Source of the DNA: Patescibacteria group bacterium
Lineage (GTDB): Bacteria; Patescibacteriota; WWE3; JAUXAW01; JAYEID01
DNA: 64,000 bases
Direction: 5' to 3'
Assembly (NCBI GenBank): GCA_048621635.1
Contig: JBMCWH010000002.1
Span: 2,227 to 66,226 of the forward strand
Positions 3,865 to 39,410 of the stretch are shown one piece after another. Position 1 is the first letter of the stretch; each line of letters begins with the position of its first letter. The notes beneath the pieces are model-generated. The model was not told the DNA's origin. It did not search any database and was given only the letters and a program-made list of their open reading frames with translations. The translations under genes and the position numbers were made by a program.

Positions 3865-4039
3865 ACGTTAAACGCTACTTTTGACTGTGATCTAATCTTT
3901 GTAAATTTTTTTGATATAAAATAGGAATTTTTGAAGTTCACAATTGAAAATTGCTATTCTAACGAGGTTTCTTAGCTACGGTTAATGTGATACTAATTTT
4001 ATATTATACCTTGGATTGAGATTGGTAGAGGGGGTAGAG

Positions 4040-4606
4040 ATGTTAATTGAGGATGCGGAGACGTTTTTTCGTGAATCTTTTTCCGAAGGGGATCCTGAAT
4101 ACGTGCTCGGTCTTCAACACGTTGAAGAAGTTGTTGCGTGGGCTAAGTGGTTGTTGAACCACTATTCCCAAGCTGACCGAGCTGTGGTTCTTACTGCTGC
4201 TTGGCTGCATGATGTTGGAAGAACTACCAAAGATCATAGCACAGATCATGCTGTTCAGTCCGCACAAATTACTAGACGTTTTCTTAAACGTCGTCTGAAG
4301 CAAGATACCATTGCAAATATTGTTCATTGTGTTCGCGCGCATCGCGTGAAAGAGGTCGTTCCCAAAACACTGGAAGCAAAGATTGTTGCGGTTGCCGATT
4401 CTATTAGTCATATGACGGGTCCTGTTTATATCTTAGTTGGTAAGGAGTTAGGATGGGAATTTGCTTTCAGAAAATTGGATAGAGATTTTCGTGATCTTGA
4501 TCTTTTGCCAAAGATAAAAAAACTATTTGAAGATTTGTACTTCCCGTGGAAACAACTCCTGGGCGCTTCTGATATTGTTTGTGCTGTGCGGGACAAAGAA
4601 ACCTAG
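4040..4606 (+). CDS. HD-domain phosphohydrolase
   Basis: Has the AAWLHDVGR HD motif and downstream His residues. ATG 4040 is preceded by GAGGGGG (4028-4034), while the track start 4016 is TTG. Confidence 0.7.
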   Translation: MLIEDAETFFRESFSEGDPEYVLGLQHVEEVVAWAKWLLNHYSQADRAVVLTAAWLHDVGRTTKDHSTDHAVQSAQITRRFLKRRLKQDTIANIVHCVRAHRVKEVVPKTLEAKIVAVADSISHMTGPVYILVGKELGWEFAFRKLDRDFRDLDLLPKIKKLFEDLYFPWKQLLGASDIVCAVRDKET

Positions 4607-4638
4607 TAAAAGATTTTAATTTCGTCTACCTCTTATAT

Positions 4639-4684
4639 ACGGACGGGTTTCCATATACTTTTGGGCCCGTCCGTCCTTATTATT
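4639..4684 (+). terminator. Hairpin after the HD gene
   Basis: ACGGACGGG (4639-4647) pairs with CCCGTCCGT (4666-4674), followed by a T-rich CCTTATTATTT tail. The loop is large (18 nt). Confidence 0.45.
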
Positions 4685-4783
4685 TACAATAGTAGTTGTA
4701 ATGATAAAATGAATTCAAAAGAGTTTATCAATTACTGTCTACTTCTTTCGTAATTACGATCTGTTCCTTTTTTATTTAGTTCT

Positions 4784-6325
4784 ATGTTACAGAATAAGTC
4801 AAAATCCAAATCAAGATCTCCCGAGAAAAGCCACATTAGACCGCCTGCTGTGGCGGGGTCTTTTTATCCTGCGGATGAAGATATTCTTTCCCAAGAAATA
4901 GAAAATTACCTAGCAGATGTAGAATTAGAAAAGGAGATAGGAAGAGTAAAAGTGTTGATTGTCCCTCATGCCGGACTGCGGTTTTCCGGAAAAGTTGCAG
5001 CGCATGGCTTCAAGGCTCTCCAACGCAAGGGGTTGGAGAGGGTTGTTCTTATCGGGTCTAGTCACCAGTATCCGGTTCGGGGAGCAGTAGTTGATAATCA
5101 TGCTTATTGGCAAACCCCTTTGGGTAAAGTTTCCGTTGATCAAGAGTTTGCTCGGATTTTAGCCGAGTCTGTATCCGGAATTACTTTGGATTCCGAACCA
5201 CATAAACAAGAACATTCTTTGGAAATTGAGCTCCCTTTTCTGCAAACTGTTTTGGGTGATTTCAAAATTGTGCCAATTTTAATTAACAATAGATCTTCCC
5301 AGTTAATTGACCAGATGGCTCAGTATCTTAGTAAAAATGGAGGAAAAGCTACGGTTGTAGTAATTAGTTCTGATCTATCGCATTACCCTTCTCATTCTGA
5401 TGCTAATAGGATAGACAAGGAAACGATAGATGCTATTACATCCGGTTCTGTTGCTCATTTTTTAGATGTAGTTGAAAAAGATATTGGGTCGGTAACAAAT
5501 CTAGCCACCCGAGCTTGTGGAGAAGTTCCAATTGTAGTTGGAATGGAAACAGCTAAAAATTTAGGTGCGAAAGACATTAGATTACTGAAATATGCTAATT
5601 CTGGTGATGTAACTGGTGATAAAAGAAGGGTGGTAGGCTATGCAGCTATTGCTTTTCCAATGGAGAAGCCAACTTCTGAAAAAGATAATGCTAGTCTTTT
5701 TGAAAGAGGTACTAGGGACGGAGGGAGTAGCCAAGGGAATGAGAAAGAGCAATCTTCAGAAACTACACCAGCCAGCTTAGGAGAAAACCAGCAGCAACTT
5801 CTTCTCAATCTTGCTCGGGAAACACTGGAATGCTTTGTGAGAGAAGGCGAAATTCCGGAGTTATCGGTGGATGATCCATCCTTACAAGAACAGCTAGGTG
5901 CGTTTGTAACACTTAAAAAGCCAGAAGATGAGCAAAATTTGCGTGGTTGTATGGGTGTGATTGAGGCAAAGAGGCCTTTGTGGAAAGTTGTTCAAGATCG
6001 TACGGTAGCTGCTGCTTCTAAGGACCCCCGTTTTTTACCAGTTACTCCGGATGAATTAGATAATATCGAAATTGAGATTTCTGTGCTTTCTAAGCCAAGG
6101 CTAGTTGATGATCCCAGTGAAATAGAATTAGGAAAACACGGAGTTATATTGGAGAAAAATGGGCGCGGTGGGGTCTTTCTTCCTCAGGTAGCAGAAGAAA
6201 CTGGATGGGATCTGGAGAATTTTCTTGGGCACCTGTGTACGCACAAAGCAGGGTTAAGACCAGATTGTTGGAAATCTTCCGAGACTTGCCTCTTCATATT
6301 CACAGCGCAAGTTTTTCCAGAATAG
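4784..6325 (+). CDS. Fusion of MEMO1-family protein (AmmeMemoRadiSam system protein B) and AMMECR1 domain (system protein A)
   Basis: The N-terminal half has RPPAVAGSFYPAD...VLIVPHAGLRFSG...SSDLSHY (MEMO). The C-terminal half has LGAFVTLKK...LRGCMG...DPRF.PV...IEISVLS...GVFLPQV..E.GW (AMMECR1). They are joined by a Ser/Glu/Gly-rich linker. Confidence 0.85.
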   Translation: MLQNKSKSKSRSPEKSHIRPPAVAGSFYPADEDILSQEIENYLADVELEKEIGRVKVLIVPHAGLRFSGKVAAHGFKALQRKGLERVVLIGSSHQYPVRGAVVDNHAYWQTPLGKVSVDQEFARILAESVSGITLDSEPHKQEHSLEIELPFLQTVLGDFKIVPILINNRSSQLIDQMAQYLSKNGGKATVVVISSDLSHYPSHSDANRIDKETIDAITSGSVAHFLDVVEKDIGSVTNLATRACGEVPIVVGMETAKNLGAKDIRLLKYANSGDVTGDKRRVVGYAAIAFPMEKPTSEKDNASLFERGTRDGGSSQGNEKEQSSETTPASLGENQQQLLLNLARETLECFVREGEIPELSVDDPSLQEQLGAFVTLKKPEDEQNLRGCMGVIEAKRPLWKVVQDRTVAAASKDPRFLPVTPDELDNIEIEISVLSKPRLVDDPSEIELGKHGVILEKNGRGGVFLPQVAEETGWDLENFLGHLCTHKAGLRPDCWKSSETCLFIFTAQVFPE

Positions 6326-6336
6326 TTGATTAGAAC

Positions 6337-6369
6337 GCCAATTAATAATCTCGGACTTTATTAATTGGC
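6337..6369. repeat. REP-like palindrome copy A (GCCAATTAATAA-TCTCGGACT-TTATTAATTGGC)
   Basis: Perfect 12-bp arms with a 9-nt loop. Positions 6329-6370 are identical to 39370-39411. Confidence 0.9.
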
Positions 6370-6441: not shown

Positions 6442-9400
6442 ATGAAGATAAAAAATGTAATTAAAATTCAACTTATTGGCATCTTTTCTTTGCTTCTTTT
6501 CTTTTTCTCTAGGTCTGGGCACGTCTTTGCTTATAATTCTCCGCGGATGTATCTAACTGATCTAAATATAGAGAGAACTGATTATCAGGTCGGGGATAAG
6601 ATAAGAGGAGAATTCAAAACCTGGAATACGGAGAGCTATGGGCTTGTAGGTGTAAATTGTCTTGCTTCGGTAGCTATTCCTTCAGAAAATACAGCGCCCT
6701 TGCAATTAGATTTGAAGAAAGTTGCAACCTTAGATTTTGCAGAGGAATCTAAGCGAACACACCAATTTAGCTACACACTTCCCGAAGCGCTACCCACTGG
6801 GACATTTACTTTTAAAGTCTTTTTAGAACTAGATAACGGAATCCCTCTTGGTTGGGATACTGAGAATATTGAAGTTCAGGGGGGTGGCCCTTTTATTTTT
6901 CTTGCTGATACTGCAGTTTTAAAAGATTCGGAAAGCTATCCACCGGGAGTGGGTGTGAAGTATCCTTCTAATCAATATCCTATTTTTAAATTTACTGCGA
7001 AAAATCAGAGCGCAGAAGAGCTCACTGTTTATCCCAAAATAACTGTTCACAAAAGGACCCAGGCCGGTGAGATTTTCAGAACATTGAAAAGACCTTCCCG
7101 TACATTCAAAGGAAAGGAAAGTAAAGCTATAGAAATAGATGGCCCTCTTCTTGATCTTCCGGGTACTTATATAGCTAAGGTTGCGCTCTATACTCAGGAA
7201 GATGTCTCTGTATCTAATCCTGTGATTTTTCGCTGGAGTGTTAAGGGTGTGAGTAGTACTATTCTTAATGTTACCCCACCGGAAGAAAATTATGACCAGA
7301 ATGAGCAGCCAGAAATCCGCGTAGATTATGCTGGGCCTGCGGACGGTTCTGATCAAGGGGAAGCGACTTTAAGAATTGAACTTTATGATGCAAAAGGTGT
7401 TGCAGGAGAGAAAGTGACAACTGTTGACCTTGGTCCTGAAGGGGGGAGTGTTACTTTGTCTCCCCAGCTAGGAAGGGCCTGTAAAGATTGCCAAGTTAGA
7501 ACTGAGATTTCCAAAGCTGGCACATCCTTGGATTCCAAGGATGTTCGTAATCTAGGAGAGTTATTGGATGAAGATGAAGCATCGCGTAAAGGGGGACGCC
7601 TTTTGTTGCAGGTAGGTATCTGTGTGGTTCTTCTGTTACTGGTGTTAGCAGCTTTAATTTTTGTTTTTATTTCTTCCGAGAAGAGAAAGAAAATTATTCA
7701 CCGCGTTACTAGGCTGTTTAGTTCAAAAGCTATGTTGTTTTTGTTAGCGTTTGGTTTTTTGTTTTCCTTTCCTAAAAACTGTTTTGCTGCCGGGAGTATT
7801 ACTTGGAATAAACCTCTACAAGATAGTGTTTACCTTCCCGGTGACGATATAGAGTTTCAAGGGATAGTCTATATAGATTATTGTGTTGATAAATTGTTTA
7901 ATTGGACTGTGGAATATAGTATTGTCGATGATAAGGATGATTCCACTAAGGAAGTTTTTCTAGGGCGTACTGTTGTTGATGACTCTTTTTACGACGGAAG
8001 TCATCATTACGAGATAAAAGTTTTTGATAGTGAGGGGACTGTTTTAAAGGAGCAAGAAACAACAAAACATCCCAGCCAATGGCCTGGTGCCCCTGGTGCA
8101 GATTCAGCTACCTATCCTACTTTTGATCCTGATAATAATCCTGTCTTTTTTGAATTCCCTTCTGGATTTAACCAGGAGTATGTATGGGCTAAGGTTCATA
8201 TGGAAGGAGAAGGATATTCGGGGGAGGTGGAAGCTACTGCTTATGAGCGGTTGAGAATCCCTCAGCAGAGTCTTACTGGCTATGTTTGGGAAGACGCTAA
8301 TAGCGATGGAGTGAAAGATTCTGGAGAGGATATTTCCGGGGAGGCAAGTGTGTGGTTAGATGATGTTACTAGACAGGAACTTGATCCCGAAGGTTTTTCT
8401 GTCAATGTTTCACCTGGTAATTATCGTGTCTATATTGAACCTGAGGGATGTTTTTGCCTTACGTACTGGAACAGAAGTTCTCCGCCATCTGATAGTGGAG
8501 CAGTTTTCAGTTACCAGGAAGATCTTGCTGGTGTCTGGTATGCTGATGTGGGTGAGATACAAGAAGACGAAAGTAAGCATGCTTATTTAGGAATTAAAAA
8601 AGCTGGTTTTGCCCTTGATCCTGTTTCAGAAGACCTTACTGTAGGCACAACTGGTTCAACTTCTGCAACATTTTTGATTGAACACAATGGTTGTTGGGAA
8701 AATAATGAGGAAATAGATTTATCCTTAAAAGATGTTCCTGCTGTCTCTGGTATTTCTGCTTCATTATCTCATAACAGTTTGGTTCCCACTGATACAGGTG
8801 TTAATTTTCGCTTGGATGTGGAGACAGATAATGCTCCTGAAGGTACTTATAATTTTCAAATTCGCGCCGAGGACGGGTGTGGAAATACTGAGTCTGCAAA
8901 TATTAGTTTGAAGGTAGAGGTACCTTTGATGGATGCTTGGTTTCAATCGGAGGCGGGAGATATATACGCACGAAAAGGAATTTCTAACATAATTCCCTCT
9001 GTTGATGAGGCACTTCCTTTTCGCAATGAATCCCGCTTTGTTGATCTAGCTTCCCAATATAATTACTTGTCAATGAGCAATACAAGTCCGGGTGTTATTC
9101 TCTCTGGCAATTCAATGGATCTTGGAACTTCTGGCGAAATTTCAGAGCAATCTTGGCAGGCCGAGGATTATCTGATAGGGTTTTACGATCCTACACCAGT
9201 GGAAAGGTATACATATGATTATAATTTCTTTGATGCAAACTTAATTGCGGATTGTGTGCTTACAGGTGATGCTGAAATGGGTGGGAGTGAGCAGGAAGGG
9301 GAAATCCTGACGGCAGACGGCAGCTGTACTCCTGCAAACAACCAGGTAATCAAAGTTAACGGAGATTTGGATATTCTTGGCGGAGAGGGTTTTCAAAATG

Positions 9401-26052: not shown

Positions 26053-26111
26053 GATTCGGACATTAATTAAGGATAACAAATAATTAATAATCTCGGACTT
26101 TATTAATTGGC
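26053..26111. repeat. REP-like pair: degenerate copy (26053-26072) plus copy B (26082-26111)
   Basis: Copy B is AATTAATAA-TCTCGGACT-TTATTAATTGGC, continuing into GTT. The upstream relic is GATTCGGACATTAATTAAGG. Confidence 0.75.
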
Positions 26112-27588: not shown

Positions 27589-29088
27589 ATGTCTCTAGAG
27601 AATTTCGGCGATACTTTGCTTAAAAAGTTGAATAGTCTTGCCCGCGAGAAGAATATATATCTAATTTCCCGTTTGCAAGAAAGTAAGGTTAAGTCTTTAG
27701 AAGTAGTTAACGGAGAAATAAATGAAGTTAATTCTGGACAACATTCCGGATTAGGCTTGCATCTTTTTGATCAGCAGGGACATTCGATTCTTACAAGCAC
27801 AGACAAACTTAATGATAATTATGTTTCAAAGTTATTTGAACGATCCGCTGCGCAATTAAAAAAAATTAACTGTAAAGCAACGAAGACACCTGCGATTTTC
27901 GACTTAGAAAAAAATAAGGATTCAGTGGATTTGGCTAGCGAGTTTGCTTTTAACTTTTTTACTACCCAAGAACTAAAAGAAAAGCTTTTGCAGCATAATC
28001 GGCAAGTGGGAGAACTGGCAGCTAAAGCGGAAATAGACAACAAGATAAGTGTTAGAACGTTGCTACAGGTGAAAAAGCAGGCACGGAGACTTACAAGAAT
28101 AGACGGAACTGATATCTTTTGGAGTATTCCTTCTTGCCGCTTAAGTACAGTTATAAATTTAAATACTAAGGAAAATAAAATAGCCGATTACGTAACAAGA
28201 ATTACACCTGATTGGGAGATTCTTACAGATAAACGCCAACTGGAGGACTTTTACTTGGAAGTTAGGAATGTATTAGACCTTTTGAAATCTTCTGCTGACA
28301 AACCGCAATATCCAGCCGGGAACTATCCTTTACTTATTGATTCAAAATTAGGTGGCTTACTTGCTCACGAAGCTTTCGGTCACGCTGCGGAGTCGGATAG
28401 CATTCTTTCCGGGGAATCTATACTTTCCAAAGATAAAAAATTGGCTAAGGGGAGGGCTGTAGCTAGTGAAAAAGTTTCAATCATTGATCAGGCTAGAAAA
28501 TATAGTTGGGGGTATACTCCGTACAGCAGTTTTGGAGTAGCAAGAGAAAAAGTAGAAATTGTGAAAGATGGTAAATTGAATGCATCTCTGAGTGATATTT
28601 CCAGTGGTAGAAGGATTGGAGATAAAGTATACGGCTGTGCAAGGACAGAAAGCTATGAAGATATACCAATCCCTAGGATGAGTAACACATTTATTTCTGT
28701 CAAGCAGCCTTTTCCGGGTTTTAACTCTTACCCAAAGCCCGCTCAAATAAGAGATAAATTACTTCAGGAAGATTTGTTGAATGATAAAGTTTTGCTTTTG
28801 CACAGATGCTTTGGCGGTGGGCAAGTAGACCCTCACAGTGGAACATTTATGTTTAATTTTAATTATTTATACGAATTGACCCCTTCTTCTGTAAAATTGT
28901 ATCGGGGGAGTTCTTTTAGCGGCAATATTTTGGAAGCTTTGAAGTCGGTAAAAGCGGGCTTTGGAGGAGTAAAAATTCATCAGACAGGTGTTTGTGGCAA
29001 AAGAGGGCAAACAGTACCTACTGCATCTGGATCTAACCAATTTTTGCTTATTGACCAAACGCCAGCAGTTATGTTGGGAGGAAGCTGA
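27589..29088 (+). CDS. tldD: TldD/PmbA-family metalloprotease (TldD-like, HExxxH present)
   Basis: LLAHEAFGHAAESD motif. ATG 27589 lies 8 nt after TGtTACAAT, and the track start is GTG 27571. Confidence 0.75.
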   Translation: MSLENFGDTLLKKLNSLAREKNIYLISRLQESKVKSLEVVNGEINEVNSGQHSGLGLHLFDQQGHSILTSTDKLNDNYVSKLFERSAAQLKKINCKATKTPAIFDLEKNKDSVDLASEFAFNFFTTQELKEKLLQHNRQVGELAAKAEIDNKISVRTLLQVKKQARRLTRIDGTDIFWSIPSCRLSTVINLNTKENKIADYVTRITPDWEILTDKRQLEDFYLEVRNVLDLLKSSADKPQYPAGNYPLLIDSKLGGLLAHEAFGHAAESDSILSGESILSKDKKLAKGRAVASEKVSIIDQARKYSWGYTPYSSFGVAREKVEIVKDGKLNASLSDISSGRRIGDKVYGCARTESYEDIPIPRMSNTFISVKQPFPGFNSYPKPAQIRDKLLQEDLLNDKVLLLHRCFGGGQVDPHSGTFMFNFNYLYELTPSSVKLYRGSSFSGNILEALKSVKAGFGGVKIHQTGVCGKRGQTVPTASGSNQFLLIDQTPAVMLGGS

Positions 29089-29280
29089 CATTGTCTGTAC
29101 CAAAGCAACCCTCCTGCCTCGCGGCAAGGCGGGTTGGGTCCGACAAGGCAGGGCTACGGAACGACAAGTGCTACGTATCTACGATAAAACCGGACTTTAA
29201 GATTGGACTCGCCTCGGCGAAGCGCTCTGGTGAAGCAAGGCTCCAAAGGCCGGCTTTGGGGAATTGTTGAACCGACTACG

Positions 29281-33815: not shown

Positions 33816-35084
33816 ATGAAAAAAGGATATCTAGTTCATTATGGAGAGATAGCTTTAAAGGGTGAAAATCGCAGCTTCTTCGAAAACAAGTTAATCAGCA
33901 ATATTGAAAATGCTGTGAGTGATTTGAACTTGGAAAAGAACCCTGTCAAAAATCTTTACGGCAGGTTGTTTTTGCAACTACCTTCTAGTGAAATAGCGAG
34001 CTCGGAGCCGTGTACCCAACGTGGTACCGCGGTTATCACGCGACAGAAGGAGGATCGCGGACTAAAGTCCGCTACTTCAATATCGAACAGGCTTGAATTC
34101 CGACTAAAAAAAATTCCTGGAATTGCCAATTTTTCTCCAGCTTATCTTGCCGAACGCGATCTGGATAAACTTAAAGAATTAATTTGGCAGGAAACAAAAC
34201 AAAGAATGCCTTTTGAAACATTTCGTATTCGCGCTTCTCGAGCAGACAAATCTTTCCCACTTACATCTAGAGACATTGAATTTAAAATTGGCGGCTACGT
34301 AAAAGAGAAATCACAAGCAGAAGTGGATTTGGAAAATGCGAAACTCAGCTGTTATATAGAAATACTCAGCGATAAAGCTTTATTTTACTTTGAAAAAATA
34401 CCCGGACCAGGTGGTCTTCCCGTAACTACCGCTGGTAAAGTAGGTGCTTTACTTTCTGGAGGAATAGATTCTCCAGTAGCTGCCTGGAAAATAGCGAAGA
34501 GAGGCGCGAAAAATGTCTTTATCCATTTCCACAGTTATCCACAAACGGATAAAGCTTCCCAAGAAAAGGTAAAGGACTTTGTCCGTACGTTGGTTAAATG
34601 GCAAGGTACTAGTACTCTTTTCCTTGTACCTTTACTGAAAATTCAAGAAGAAATTGTTGCCCAATGTCCTAAAAAGCTACGTGTAATCTTGTACAGAAGA
34701 ATGATGCTTAGAATTGCGGAAAAAATAGCGAAAAAAGAAAATTGTTTAGCTCTAGTCACAGGAGAAAGTCTGGGACAGGTAGCTTCACAAACAATAGAAA
34801 ATATGAGAGTGACTGAGGCAGTGACAACACTACCGGTGTTTAGACCATTAATTGGGATGGATAAACAGCAAATAGTGGGCACTGCAAAAAAAATAGGTAC
34901 GTATGAAACGGCTATTAAACCACACCAAGATTGTTGTTCCTTATTCGTTCCTCAACATCCAGAAACAAGAGCAAAATTAGAAATGGTGGAGAAAACAGAA
35001 AAACTGCTGCAATTGGAAAATCTAATTGACTATGCGTTAGAAAATTCTACCAGAGACAAGTTCTTCTTCCCCTCCTTCGCATAA
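33816..35084 (+). CDS. thiI: tRNA 4-thiouridine synthase ThiI, with a ~29-aa insertion in the N-terminal domain
   Basis: YGEIALKGENR, THUMP region, PP-loop LLSGGIDSPVAAW, TGESLGQVASQT and CCSLF. Confidence 0.9.
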   Translation: MKKGYLVHYGEIALKGENRSFFENKLISNIENAVSDLNLEKNPVKNLYGRLFLQLPSSEIASSEPCTQRGTAVITRQKEDRGLKSATSISNRLEFRLKKIPGIANFSPAYLAERDLDKLKELIWQETKQRMPFETFRIRASRADKSFPLTSRDIEFKIGGYVKEKSQAEVDLENAKLSCYIEILSDKALFYFEKIPGPGGLPVTTAGKVGALLSGGIDSPVAAWKIAKRGAKNVFIHFHSYPQTDKASQEKVKDFVRTLVKWQGTSTLFLVPLLKIQEEIVAQCPKKLRVILYRRMMLRIAEKIAKKENCLALVTGESLGQVASQTIENMRVTEAVTTLPVFRPLIGMDKQQIVGTAKKIGTYETAIKPHQDCCSLFVPQHPETRAKLEMVEKTEKLLQLENLIDYALENSTRDKFFFPSFA

Positions 35085-35105
35085 AATCAACGATATATAG
35101 TTCTC

Positions 35106-35371
35106 AAAAAAAAAAAAGGAATCAGCACCCAAGGTTACCTAGACAGTTAAGTCCAAGTTCCTGGGTACTGACCCCTGAAAGGAGACGACCATGAAAGATG
35201 ATCCTTCAAAAGCCAGCTCCTGTGATTGTTAGCCTCGCTGGCTAGCTTCGTTAAAAGCGATTGTGCTAAGTTTCACCAGCGAGGTTGAGGAGAGACTTGA
35301 TCTAGCAATGTCTTGTTGCCCCGTTGTCTCGGTGTCGAGATTTTTCGGGAGGTAAGAGTTGCTAGACCAAA
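35106..35371 (-). ncRNA. Candidate structured RNA (tRNA-like-gene trailer) ending in a strong intrinsic terminator
   Basis: Stems TCTAGCAA/TTGCTAGA, TCTCG-ACAC-CGAGA and CCTCGCTGG/CCAGCGAGG (9 bp). The terminal hairpin 35123-35170 is followed by T12 (A12 on plus strand at 35106-35117). No convincing ORF. Confidence 0.35.
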
Positions 35372-35484
35372 TACGCGGGGGAGGAGTTGAACCTCCGTTT
35401 ATTCATCTTTCCGCTTCCCCTGGGCAGACGCTTGCCCTAAAGAGTAGAAGATGAATTGTCCTCGGCCTCTAGACTACCCGCGTA
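35372..35484 (-). tRNA. tRNA-like gene with about 39 extra nt in the anticodon loop; no encoded CCA; anticodon not assignable (UCU is one reading)
   Basis: Acceptor ACGCGGG/CCCGCGT, D-arm GTCT-AGAGGCCGA-GGAC, T-arm GGAGG-TTCAACT-CCTCC and a 4-5 nt variable loop. The anticodon stem ATTCA/TGAAT is extended by TCTT/AAGA and encloses hairpin GGGCA-AGCGTC-TGCCC. Confidence 0.5.
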
Positions 35485-35642
35485 AAGTTGGTTCCTGTAT
35501 TTTCAGCACATAAATTTTATATAAATAAAAAGGTGCTGTCCTCTTCTACAGGAACCGGTGGCTTCCCCGAGGAAAGGCTGGATTGGTAGCGAGCCCAATC
35601 CTAGGACCCAAGTTGAATACAGTAAAAGTGGGCCCTCGAAAA

Positions 35643-35662
35643 ACAGGAAAACCTGTTTTTTA
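35643..35662 (+). terminator. Rho-independent terminator 105 nt upstream of iscS
   Basis: ACAGG-AAAA-CCTGT followed by TTTTTT. Confidence 0.55.
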
Positions 35663-38486: not shown

Positions 38487-38521
38487 CTTTTTTTCATAAC
38501 CTTTCATAATCTCTTTCATAA

Positions 38522-38542
38522 TCTCGGACTTTATTAATCGCC
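38522..38542. repeat. REP-like copy D (degenerate left arm)
   Basis: TCTCGGACT loop plus right arm TTATTAATCGCC, ending 1 nt before the transposase stop codon (38544-38546). Preceded by the 12-nt tandem TTTCATAATCTC x2 (38502-38525). Confidence 0.7.
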
Positions 38543-38543
38543 T

Positions 38544-39311
38544 TCAATATGCCATTTCTTTGTATTGTTCGACCAACTCAGCTTTCTGATTCTTGTCTAG
38601 TTCCTCAAACTTACGAAACCAACCGAAATCATCATCAATTGCTACATCTTTCAAGCGCATAACCCCAAATTGATCGATCTCTGCTTCAGTAAATTTCTTA
38701 TATTCCTCTCTACTTCCAAATTCCCCGAGAACTAAATCAGTATTAAGAAAAGAATAGAAATCTCTTCTTGCTAGATACGTATTGAGACTAGACCAAGGGT
38801 ACTCAATTAACTGATTAACTGAATCTAAACCAAGTTTCTGTGGATTGATGTGCTGGTACCTAGTGACGTGAATTAATTGTTCATCACTTTCAACCTTAAC
38901 CGATTTGAACCGCCCTTGAAACAACCCACCTACCCTATCCTGCCGTTTATTGAAATACTTGGTATAAGAAGTACAAATACGGCGCATAAAATTCGTAATT
39001 CCGTCTTCGTTTAGTTGTTTAAAGACAAAGTGGAAATGATTAGGCATTAGACAGAAAGAAATTATATCTACAGCTGGTTTAATTATTTTCGTTTCTAAAT
39101 CCTCGATTATTGCCTCACGTGCTGCAGGTGATGTTGCTCTTTCTATCCTAGTACTAATTACGCTATAAGGAACTGAATATTTAAGAGAATGAGCTATAAC
39201 TTCTAGAAAATGAGAATAAAAACTATTGTTGGGGAAAATAATCCGCTTTTCTATACCTCTATTGTAAATGTGATAGGTACTGTCAGTTATTAACGGGTTG
39301 TCTCTTCTCAT
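38544..39311 (-). CDS. IS200-like HUH/Y1 transposase, REP-associated tyrosine transposase (RAYT)-like
   Basis: YHIYNRG, HUH motif MPNHFHFV, GGLFQGRFKS and the catalytic Tyr context VTRYQHINP. ATG 39311 lies 6 nt after TATATT. The longer ORF reaches 39371. Confidence 0.8.
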   Translation of the reverse strand: MRRDNPLITDSTYHIYNRGIEKRIIFPNNSFYSHFLEVIAHSLKYSVPYSVISTRIERATSPAAREAIIEDLETKIIKPAVDIISFCLMPNHFHFVFKQLNEDGITNFMRRICTSYTKYFNKRQDRVGGLFQGRFKSVKVESDEQLIHVTRYQHINPQKLGLDSVNQLIEYPWSSLNTYLARRDFYSFLNTDLVLGEFGSREEYKKFTEAEIDQFGVMRLKDVAIDDDFGWFRKFEELDKNQKAELVEQYKEMAY

Positions 39312-39377
39312 AAGTGGAATATAGCTGTGTTGATTGTTAATGTCAATAGGTAGTAAACAATAAAAGCGCATTAGAAC

Positions 39378-39410
39378 GCCAATTAATAATCTCGGACTTT
39401 ATTAATTGGC
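39378..39410. repeat. REP-like palindrome copy C (perfect)
   Basis: GCCAATTAATAA-TCTCGGACT-TTATTAATTGGC. Confidence 0.9.

Follow-up and report, generated by a model that had tools for sequence, protein, structure and literature searches.

Within the window (the whole stretch of 64,000 nucleotides, or 64 kb, analysed here, from contig JBMCWH010000002.1 of a Patescibacteria group bacterium), the thiI gene carries 29 extra codons that, with a probability of roughly 0.78, are an intragenic palindromic element of the repetitive extragenic palindrome (REP) type, translated within ThiI in the manner of the Rickettsia palindromic elements (RPEs). An RPE-like, in-frame palindromic insertion had been proposed in the first-pass annotation of this DNA, and the proposal is supported by a 45.9-bit match (E = 3e-10) between the 3' end of the insert and a covariance model, R1, of a dispersed hairpin family, as well as by units of that family lying in frame within other housekeeping genes. 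The gene, the insert and its parts lie as follows.

33816..35084, plus strand: thiI, encoding tRNA 4-thiouridine synthase (422 aa, reading frame unbroken across the insert; from the list of open reading frames (ORFs) and Pfam)
33993..34079, plus strand: in-frame insert of 87 nt (29 codons) in the N-terminal ferredoxin-like domain, between the strand at residues 51-54 and the helix at residues 89-97
33990..34001, plus strand: possibly the degenerate head of a partner unit in inverted orientation (GAAATAGCGAGC, compared directly with the family's GGAGTAGCNNNC)
34006..34034, plus strand: imperfect hairpin in the centre of the insert (11 bp, two of them G-U, with one bulge; minimum-free-energy fold)
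34049..34080, minus strand: full-length unit of the dispersed hairpin family (covariance model R1, exact 20-mer)
34057..34072: hairpin core of the unit, a 6-bp stem GCGGAC/GTCCGC with a 4-nt loop (direct reading, minimum-free-energy fold)
34072..34075, minus strand: GTAG tag (CTAC on the plus strand) touching the stem (direct reading; family consensus GGAGTAGC)

The product of thiI contains the Pfam domains ThiI_fer, THUMP and ThiI, and is 99% identical to an NCBI protein from a metagenome-assembled genome, tRNA uracil 4-sulfurtransferase ThiI of a Patescibacteria group bacterium. The protein reading previously given around the insert matches the translation of ORF 33816-35084 exactly (...LQLPSSE-IASSEPCTQRGTAVITRQKEDRGLKSATS-ISNRLEF...), and its interpretation as an insertion is borne out by an alignment of 118 ThiI sequences, by a split structural match and by relatives that lack the segment. 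Between R50 and G102, both invariant in the alignment, the window protein has 51 residues, whereas this interval spans 22 residues in 95 of the 118 proteins and 19-27 in 113 of them, so a homologous segment is absent from most ThiI. The phmmer match to ThiI in the PDB breaks at the insert, with query residues 56 and 94 corresponding to residues 65 and 73 of 2c5s, and the segment is missing from the aligned closest-relative proteins P0002, P0005, P0006, P0008, P0010 and P0011, the first two of which have 393 aa and are 63 and 62% identical to the window ThiI by BLASTP. In a quick neighbour-joining tree from which the insert region was excluded, the window ThiI pairs with the insert-less P0002 and P0005, and the insert-bearing P0003, P0004, P0009 and P0012 form a separate clade; because the tree splits the window from that clade, its insert is most simply read, from the sequences at hand, as an independent gain at the same loop. 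A scan of GTDB genomes for close thiI relatives returned distant ones only (37-46% identity). The extra ~29 codons are bounded by the orthologue alignment at 33993-34079 to within about 3 codons either way, the flanking DNA having diverged too far for a nucleotide alignment, and a near-identical strain (L017) has zero substitutions within the insert and hence yields no signal from covariation or from the ratio of non-synonymous to synonymous substitution rates (dN/dS).

The insert is also set apart by its composition, as the first-pass annotation had supposed. Its GC content is 0.575 against 0.38 in the remaining thiI (genome GC ~40%), its GC at third codon positions 0.55 against 0.30, and it contains 11 CpG dinucleotides where 2.6 would be expected. 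Against a background of 2663 segments of 29 codons taken from thiI and 28 other genes, only 0.08% are as GC-rich, and the synonymous-codon score of the insert is the lowest of all, so the contrast is strong on computation. The description of the insert as built of palindromes holds in part: the four palindromes named at the time were all found, and the hairpin at 34057-34072 is a true family member, but the insert as a whole stays within chance, its folding being not significant against shuffles (z = -1.57) and its longest perfect stem having 6 bp (7 bp if a 2-nt loop is allowed; P = 0.15). GC-rich islands with small palindromes seem to be common by chance, since other palindrome-bearing islands are ordinary coding sequence. 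One of these, at 4961-5056 in the Memo-AMMECR1 gene, was considered as another insert and rejected, as it sits within the Pfam Memo match (residues 21-289 equal profile positions 2-268 of 269) and looks like normal Memo sequence. An Rfam scan of the thiI insert on both strands gave noise matches only.

It is the 3' end of the insert that ties it to a repeat family. Read on the minus strand, the unit is TTGAAGTA-GCGGAC-TTTA-GTCCGC-GATC-CTCC, the first G of the GTAG tag doubling as the outermost stem base; the coding strand gives the peptide (E)DRGLKSATS. The exact 20-mer GATCGCGGACTAAAGTCCGC (34053-34072) recurs in JGI metagenomes: 20 stretches contain it, against about one expected by chance on a rough estimate, and seven of the 20 come from one sample and lie on six different contigs. 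The flanks around these sites are conserved as GGAGTAGC...GCGATC. Units of the family are 26-32 nt long with the consensus GGAGTA-GCNNNC-TTTA-GNNNGC-GATC, in which a tag of the GTAG type precedes a GC-rich stem of 6 bp closed over a TTTA loop, with GATC as the tail. The middle three pairs of the stem vary with complementarity retained; TAGC is invariant in 29 family units, and the preceding first G is usual, being replaced by A in the GAAATA and GGAATA head variants. Units occur singly or as inverted pairs with the GTAG ends outside, often with 1-5 nt between them, and the stems of the partner units differ yet pair perfectly (GCGCAC, GCGACC, GCGCGC, GCAGCC and others); clear dimers of this head-outside (HH) kind were found on L024, L028, L032, L033 and L035.

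Model R1 was built from 29 units of other contigs, the window unit being left out, and the score of the latter falls among the 42-49 bits of full-length members. The units were chosen by a rule that demanded a perfect stem and matching flanks, so their 100% pairing and their covariation score are partly circular; the recurrence of the 20-mer, the partners seen by adjacency and the score of R1 on the held-out window are free of that circularity. In 111 kb of metagenome loci R1 gives 43 matches, with 5-7 units within 4-9 kb on the low-GC contigs L028 and L033, and weaker members were seen in intergenic DNA on the contigs of two thiI relatives. The contigs that share the identical 20-mer span a GC content of 0.34-0.65; on the high-GC contigs L018, L027 and L034 (GC 0.60-0.65) the 20-mer is exact, but the R1 match covers the bare hairpin without the GGAGTA head, and these sites may be true relatives, another family or chance matches.

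Of the 24 units in the low-GC contigs, 22 fall within open frames that are 200 aa or longer. At least one of these contigs, L033, is from Patescibacteria as judged by the homologues of its TopA, which are named Nealsonbacteria, Parcubacteria or Patescibacteria. The unit-bearing proteins include the editing domain of LeuRS, TopA (with units at two distinct positions), an RsmI-like TP_methylase, a NUDIX hydrolase, a giant surface protein and a Memo-AMMECR1 fusion (L036), in which the unit occupies the linker and which is 44% identical to the window's own fusion protein; the nearest TopA homologue (75% identical) lacks both unit-encoded segments. Translation of the units yields DRxLKxATP in one orientation and GVAxFxxRS in the opposite one, three of the six frames being open for a single unit, of which the third reads SRTKVRYS, and one per orientation being open for an inverted dimer, and the EDRGLKSATS of the window uses the same frame as the units in TopA, LeuRS and Memo-AMMECR1. 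The linker of the window's Memo-AMMECR1 fusion (5722-5758) gives a weak R1 match (10 bits, E = 1.8; GGGAGTAGC...GCAATCTTC), which is not significant and may be a decayed copy of the unit.

The remainder of the insert is harder to assign. At its left end, positions 33990-34001 resemble a family head, and the head variant GAAATAGC is also found in L028 (3251) and L032 (2030); the insert ends UGAAAUAGCG and CGCUACUUCA are complementary at 9 of 10 positions, and model R1 finds no match at 33990-34001. These observations are suggestive, and only suggestive, of an HH dimer in which the left unit has decayed and a long spacer separates the two. The central hairpin includes GTACC-CAACGT-GGTAC, one of the palindromes of the first-pass annotation, and ACCGCGGT.

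Several lines of evidence bear on whether the insert is translated or removed. Its length is a multiple of 3 and it is free of stops, the inserts of five or six insert-bearing thiI relatives are all in frame, and among the relatives found no thiI is frame-broken at the insert site. Two candidates for such a break were rejected: the gene of P0007 ends at the end of its contig, and that of P0013 has its frameshift elsewhere, from a 7-nt tandem duplication (ATTAGCT|ATTAGC, at ~4925-4945 of L016) that marks either a pseudogene or an assembly error. On L016, thiI and the cysteine desulfurase gene are not separated by a tRNA block. An AlphaFold model of the window ThiI from 118 sequences is confident (mean predicted local distance difference test score, pLDDT, 90.2; predicted template-modelling score, pTM, 0.88), with residues 61-88 predicted as coil and pLDDT below 50 for residues 65-86, so that in the structure prediction that had been recommended the insert forms a disordered loop within the N-terminal ferredoxin-like domain. 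Because the insert is open and a multiple of 3, its relatives are in frame, the ThiI fold is kept, and neither any motif of the bulge-helix-bulge (BHB) type nor an Rfam match was found, we infer that it is translated as a disordered surface loop. Translational bypassing was considered and rejected, as the insert shows neither a stop following a take-off codon nor a landing codon to match.

The loop itself appears to be a recurrent target. The thiI inserts of the sister clade are unrelated sequences that are also hairpin-rich, with a perfect 15-bp palindrome in L004, a 10-bp stem in L006 and two 7-bp hairpins with CGTC/GACG tags in L001, and a 20-mer of the L001 hairpin (the insert of P0003) recurs in three unrelated IMG/VR contigs. 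Since the sister inserts are unrelated and the L001 hairpin recurs elsewhere, different palindromic elements seem to have settled in one permissive loop in different lineages. In TopA of L033 (2090-4303, minus strand) and its relatives P0126-P0163, two loops carry differing lineage-specific inserts, for example NPKSEIRNPKQIQNSKSQIPK in P0163, a sign that the permissive loops of TopA may each serve several element families.

We propose that an element, either an HH dimer whose left unit has since decayed or a single unit with a co-inserted spacer, entered the thiI lineage after its split from the insert-less lineage of P0002 and P0005. It would have survived because its insertion kept the frame and hit a permissive surface loop in the N-terminal ferredoxin-like domain, where it would be transcribed and translated as a disordered, selectively near-neutral loop of 29 residues. 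The family has most plausibly spread on single-stranded DNA by means of a REP-associated tyrosine transposase (RAYT) of the Y1/HUH type, which is the least supported step, and the single-stranded GTAG hairpin GGAGTAGCGGACTTTAGTCCGCGATC would be a putative substrate of the product of ORF 38544-39371. This gene and a second repeat beside it are placed as follows.

38544..39371, minus strand: RAYT-like Y1 (HUH) transposase homologue, 4.4 kb downstream, between ruvA and ruvB (Pfam Y1_Tnp, 32.8 bits)
6337-6369, 26079-26111, 38510-38545 and 39378-39410: copies of an AT-rich repeat, two of which flank the RAYT-like gene

The AT-rich repeat, GCCAATTAATAA-TCTCGGACT-TTATTAATTGGC, comprises three exact 27-nt cores and one degenerate copy, and the 9-mer CGGACTTTA is the sole sequence that it has in common with the thiI unit. 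Together with the Y1 gene it is, as judged from sequence, a REP/RAYT-like arrangement distinct from the thiI unit. Y1_Tnp genes were also found on contigs of relatives, and mobilisation of the unit by the RAYT-like enzyme of the window is a plausible hypothesis.

A number of observations weigh against reading the insert as a REP-type element. The BLASTN search for the 87-nt segment that had been suggested as a check returned no further copy within the 64-kb window, and R1, too, has its one significant match at 34049-34080 on the minus strand, so neither the insert nor the unit has a second copy there. No more than 32 nt of the 87, or perhaps 44, can be assigned to the hairpin family, and for the central ~45 nt, 34002-34048, neither the window nor the fetched loci yielded any relative, and nor did IMG/VR, where scans with two 20-21-mers from the insert gave no matches. 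Neither a target-site duplication nor a clean boundary is definable at the thiI insert. The covariation count on the unit alignment is discounted as partly circular. As for the presumed machinery, the best NCBIfam match of the RAYT-like protein, NF047646 (REP-associated tyrosine transposase), scores 52.7 bits (E = 4e-14), below the cut-off of 80 bits, and the gene is flanked by the different, AT-rich hairpin repeat and not by the thiI unit. At the protein level, a phmmer search with the insert peptide (31 aa) against 1.84 billion representatives found one match to a low-complexity repeat protein, which is spurious, in a library that collapses relatives at 50% identity and can thus hide short inserts; a six-frame peptide search of a 5.8-billion-protein index found no match and was uninformative, as it also missed the positive control P0001 (local phmmer E = 2e-6).

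A lineage-specific expansion of the loop in place, by slippage, duplication or template switching, would dispense with a mobile element altogether and leave the hairpins as by-products of quasi-palindrome correction. Such a process is consistent with the unrelated inserts of 7-36 aa at the same loop in P0003, P0004, P0009, P0012 and P0013, some of them with perfect palindromes of 10-15 bp, with the equally variable loops of Patescibacteria TopA, and with a central part that lacks relatives in an insert whose overall folding is not significant. On the other hand, the 3' 32 nt fit an independently built model and their 20-mer occurs in 20 unrelated contigs, while the codon usage, GC and CpG content are the most extreme of the 2663 segments, which a self-duplication of thiI would not yield. 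Furthermore, blastn within the window found no internal or nearby source sequence, and the hairpin of the P0003 insert recurs in unrelated contigs. Expansion in place is therefore largely refuted for the 3' unit, and for the insert as a whole we consider it distinctly improbable.

It might also be supposed that the unit is a functional cis-acting hairpin, one that, for example, stabilises the mRNA, is cut by RNase III or binds a protein, and whose translation is incidental. Flanks, loop and the geometry of the stem are indeed conserved in the family, whose stem sequences change in ways that keep the pairing, the identical 20-mer is shared across contigs of widely differing GC (0.34-0.65), and roles of REPs in mRNA stability, termination and protein binding have been reported (PMC3733652). 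Nevertheless, nothing ties the unit to the regulation of thiI, whose nearest relatives do without it, the host genes and sites are mutually unrelated, the covariation statistic is partly circular, and the high-GC contigs match the bare hairpin only, without the head, so that a regulatory role seems very unlikely to us.

That the insert is an intron-like sequence, cut from the mRNA by an archaeal-type BHB endonuclease or by RNase III with subsequent ligation, is hardly credible: a tRNA-like gene 1.3 kb away has ~38 extra nucleotides in its anticodon arm whose removal would be needed for function, the insert ends UGAAAUAGCG and CGCUACUUCA are able to pair, and the GC-rich composition with G-U pairs in the central hairpin is RNA-like, yet no BHB motif (3-nt bulges, 4-bp helix, G-U allowed) exists at the insert although 69 of 300 shuffles (23%) show one, the inserts of the window and its relatives are all stop-free multiples of 3 with no thiI broken there, the family units in other genes always lie in stop-free frames as expected if they are translated, and the host is a bacterium with no Rfam family match to the insert.

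The tRNA-like gene had been cited in the first-pass annotation as a parallel to the thiI insert.

35372-35483, minus strand: tRNA-like gene (Rfam tRNA, 47 bits; missed by ARAGORN)

The gene is real and does contain a GC-rich hairpin insert; by eye it is probably Arg-UCU, and the ~38 extra nucleotides fold as a continuous rod that lengthens the anticodon stem (z = -3.2). This insert has no similarity to the thiI unit family, no further copy in the window by blastn and no convincing BHB motif, so the parallel is a likeness in kind only. A comparable case was seen on L001, the contig of P0003, where a tRNA-Gly(GCC)-like gene at ~6870-6980 on the minus strand carries a double-hairpin D-loop insert of ~30 nt (z = -3.6) and was missed by ARAGORN and by Rfam at its gathering threshold. 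In the window the tRNA-like gene is flanked on the minus strand by GC-rich, apparently structured sequences at 35105-35370 and 35530-35660, with a terminator-like hairpin and a T-run at ~35105; an Rfam search of these flanks at E<=1 returned nothing besides the tRNA and a noise match. At the same locus the relative L003 has a different GC-rich block, between tRNA-Cys and tRNA-Gln. Elsewhere in the window, a 205-nt spacer with a GC content of 0.68 lies between two TldD/PmbA genes (29072-29276), contains CGGACTTTA and is predicted to form a very stable structure (-74 kcal/mol for 225 nt), with no Rfam match at E<=1. On L006, the contig of P0004, a free-standing ORF resembling a LAGLIDADG homing endonuclease (3893-4906) is located just upstream of DUF763 and thiI.

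GTAG REPs have been described as palindromes of 20-40 bp with a stem of 6-13 bp, a short loop and a terminal GTAG or a degenerate variant of it, falling into sub-families with complementary stem changes and forming HH and TT dimers (Di Nocera et al. 2013, PMC3733652). RAYTs are the presumed agents of GTAG REP mobilisation. The thiI unit agrees with this description in its size, its 6-bp stem and 4-nt loop and its terminal GTAG, and its family likewise has singletons, HH dimers with spacers of 1-5 bp or longer, and alternative complementary stems. It differs in that the G of its GTAG lies in the stem and a conserved GATC tail is present on the other side, and in that classical REPs are mainly extragenic whereas 22 of 24 units in the low-GC contigs are intragenic. 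The same study (PMC3733652) distinguishes 24 GTAG families, and as far as its text supplements show, the present one is none of them; we could not find it described either there or by keyword searches of the papers covered.

Intragenic GTAG/CGTC REPs encode 20-30 aa, often in genes of DNA replication and repair or in other housekeeping genes, and RPE-4 and RPE-6 of Rickettsia have been classed as intragenic CGTC-tagged REPs (PMC3733652). Like the RPEs (PMC3733652), the units are short, palindromic and repeated at scattered sites of a reduced, AT-rich genome, and are tolerated in loops; they insert in frame into ORFs of conserved proteins with the fold kept (pLDDT 90 in the AlphaFold model of ThiI), and one gene can be struck twice, as in TopA of L033 and uvrB of R. 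conorii. Unlike them, the thiI unit resides in Patescibacteria and is tagged with GTAG and not with the CGTC of RPE-4 and RPE-6, the two being likened by description and not by sequence, and RPE-1 measures 100-150 bp whereas the recognisable thiI-type unit has 26-32 nt and is single in the window. The thiI element is thus an analogue of the RPEs and not a member of the Rickettsia families.

Bertels and Rainey reportedly described, in 2011, REPIN-RAYT systems in which inverted REP doublets form a longer hairpin, and the definition of RAYTs is said to go back to Nunvar et al. in 2010. The unit family resembles these systems in its inverted doublets and in the presence of a single-copy Y1 transposase homologue (ORF 38544-39371), but a cognate RAYT flanked by the same REPs was not found, the gene in the window being flanked by the AT-rich repeat. 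GC-rich hairpins within the coding sequence of an AT-rich genome are also known from yeast mitochondrial genes, as GC-rich palindromic clusters and byp elements. Byps are skipped by ribosomal bypassing, which depends on a take-off codon matched by a landing codon and, as a rule, on a stop codon; the thiI insert, in contrast, is open and in frame and has no evident take-off/landing codon pair.

A wider reading would see the unit family as a palindromic module adapted to intragenic life, with a conserved recognition factor and possibly horizontal spread, and as one instance, along with other hairpin families, of a general route of loop insertion, at recurrent hot spots such as the beta2-alpha2 loop of ThiI, in housekeeping proteins, and perhaps tRNA-like genes, of the candidate phyla radiation (CPR). 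It is suggested by unit peptides that are stop-free and hydrophilic both ways, by the 22 of 24 units that are intragenic, by the invariance of flanks and loop, and by a 20-mer shared across varied GC, and we regard it as rather unlikely as yet. The intragenic bias in low-GC contigs and the frames open in both orientations are the features most worth following, and model R1 offers a ready tool for cataloguing such units.

If the insert is indeed a REP-type element, an odd insertion of 29 residues in a conserved tRNA-modification enzyme would be explained without a new function or an intron. Such units would inflate the apparent divergence of proteins and mark permissive loops, and peptides that they share, DRGLKSATP or GVADFSPRS, could make unrelated proteins look homologous. 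Patescibacteria have small, gene-dense genomes, and their proteins often contain unexplained lineage-specific insertions; the spread of palindromic repeats in frame, best known from Rickettsia, would then operate in Patescibacteria (CPR) as well.

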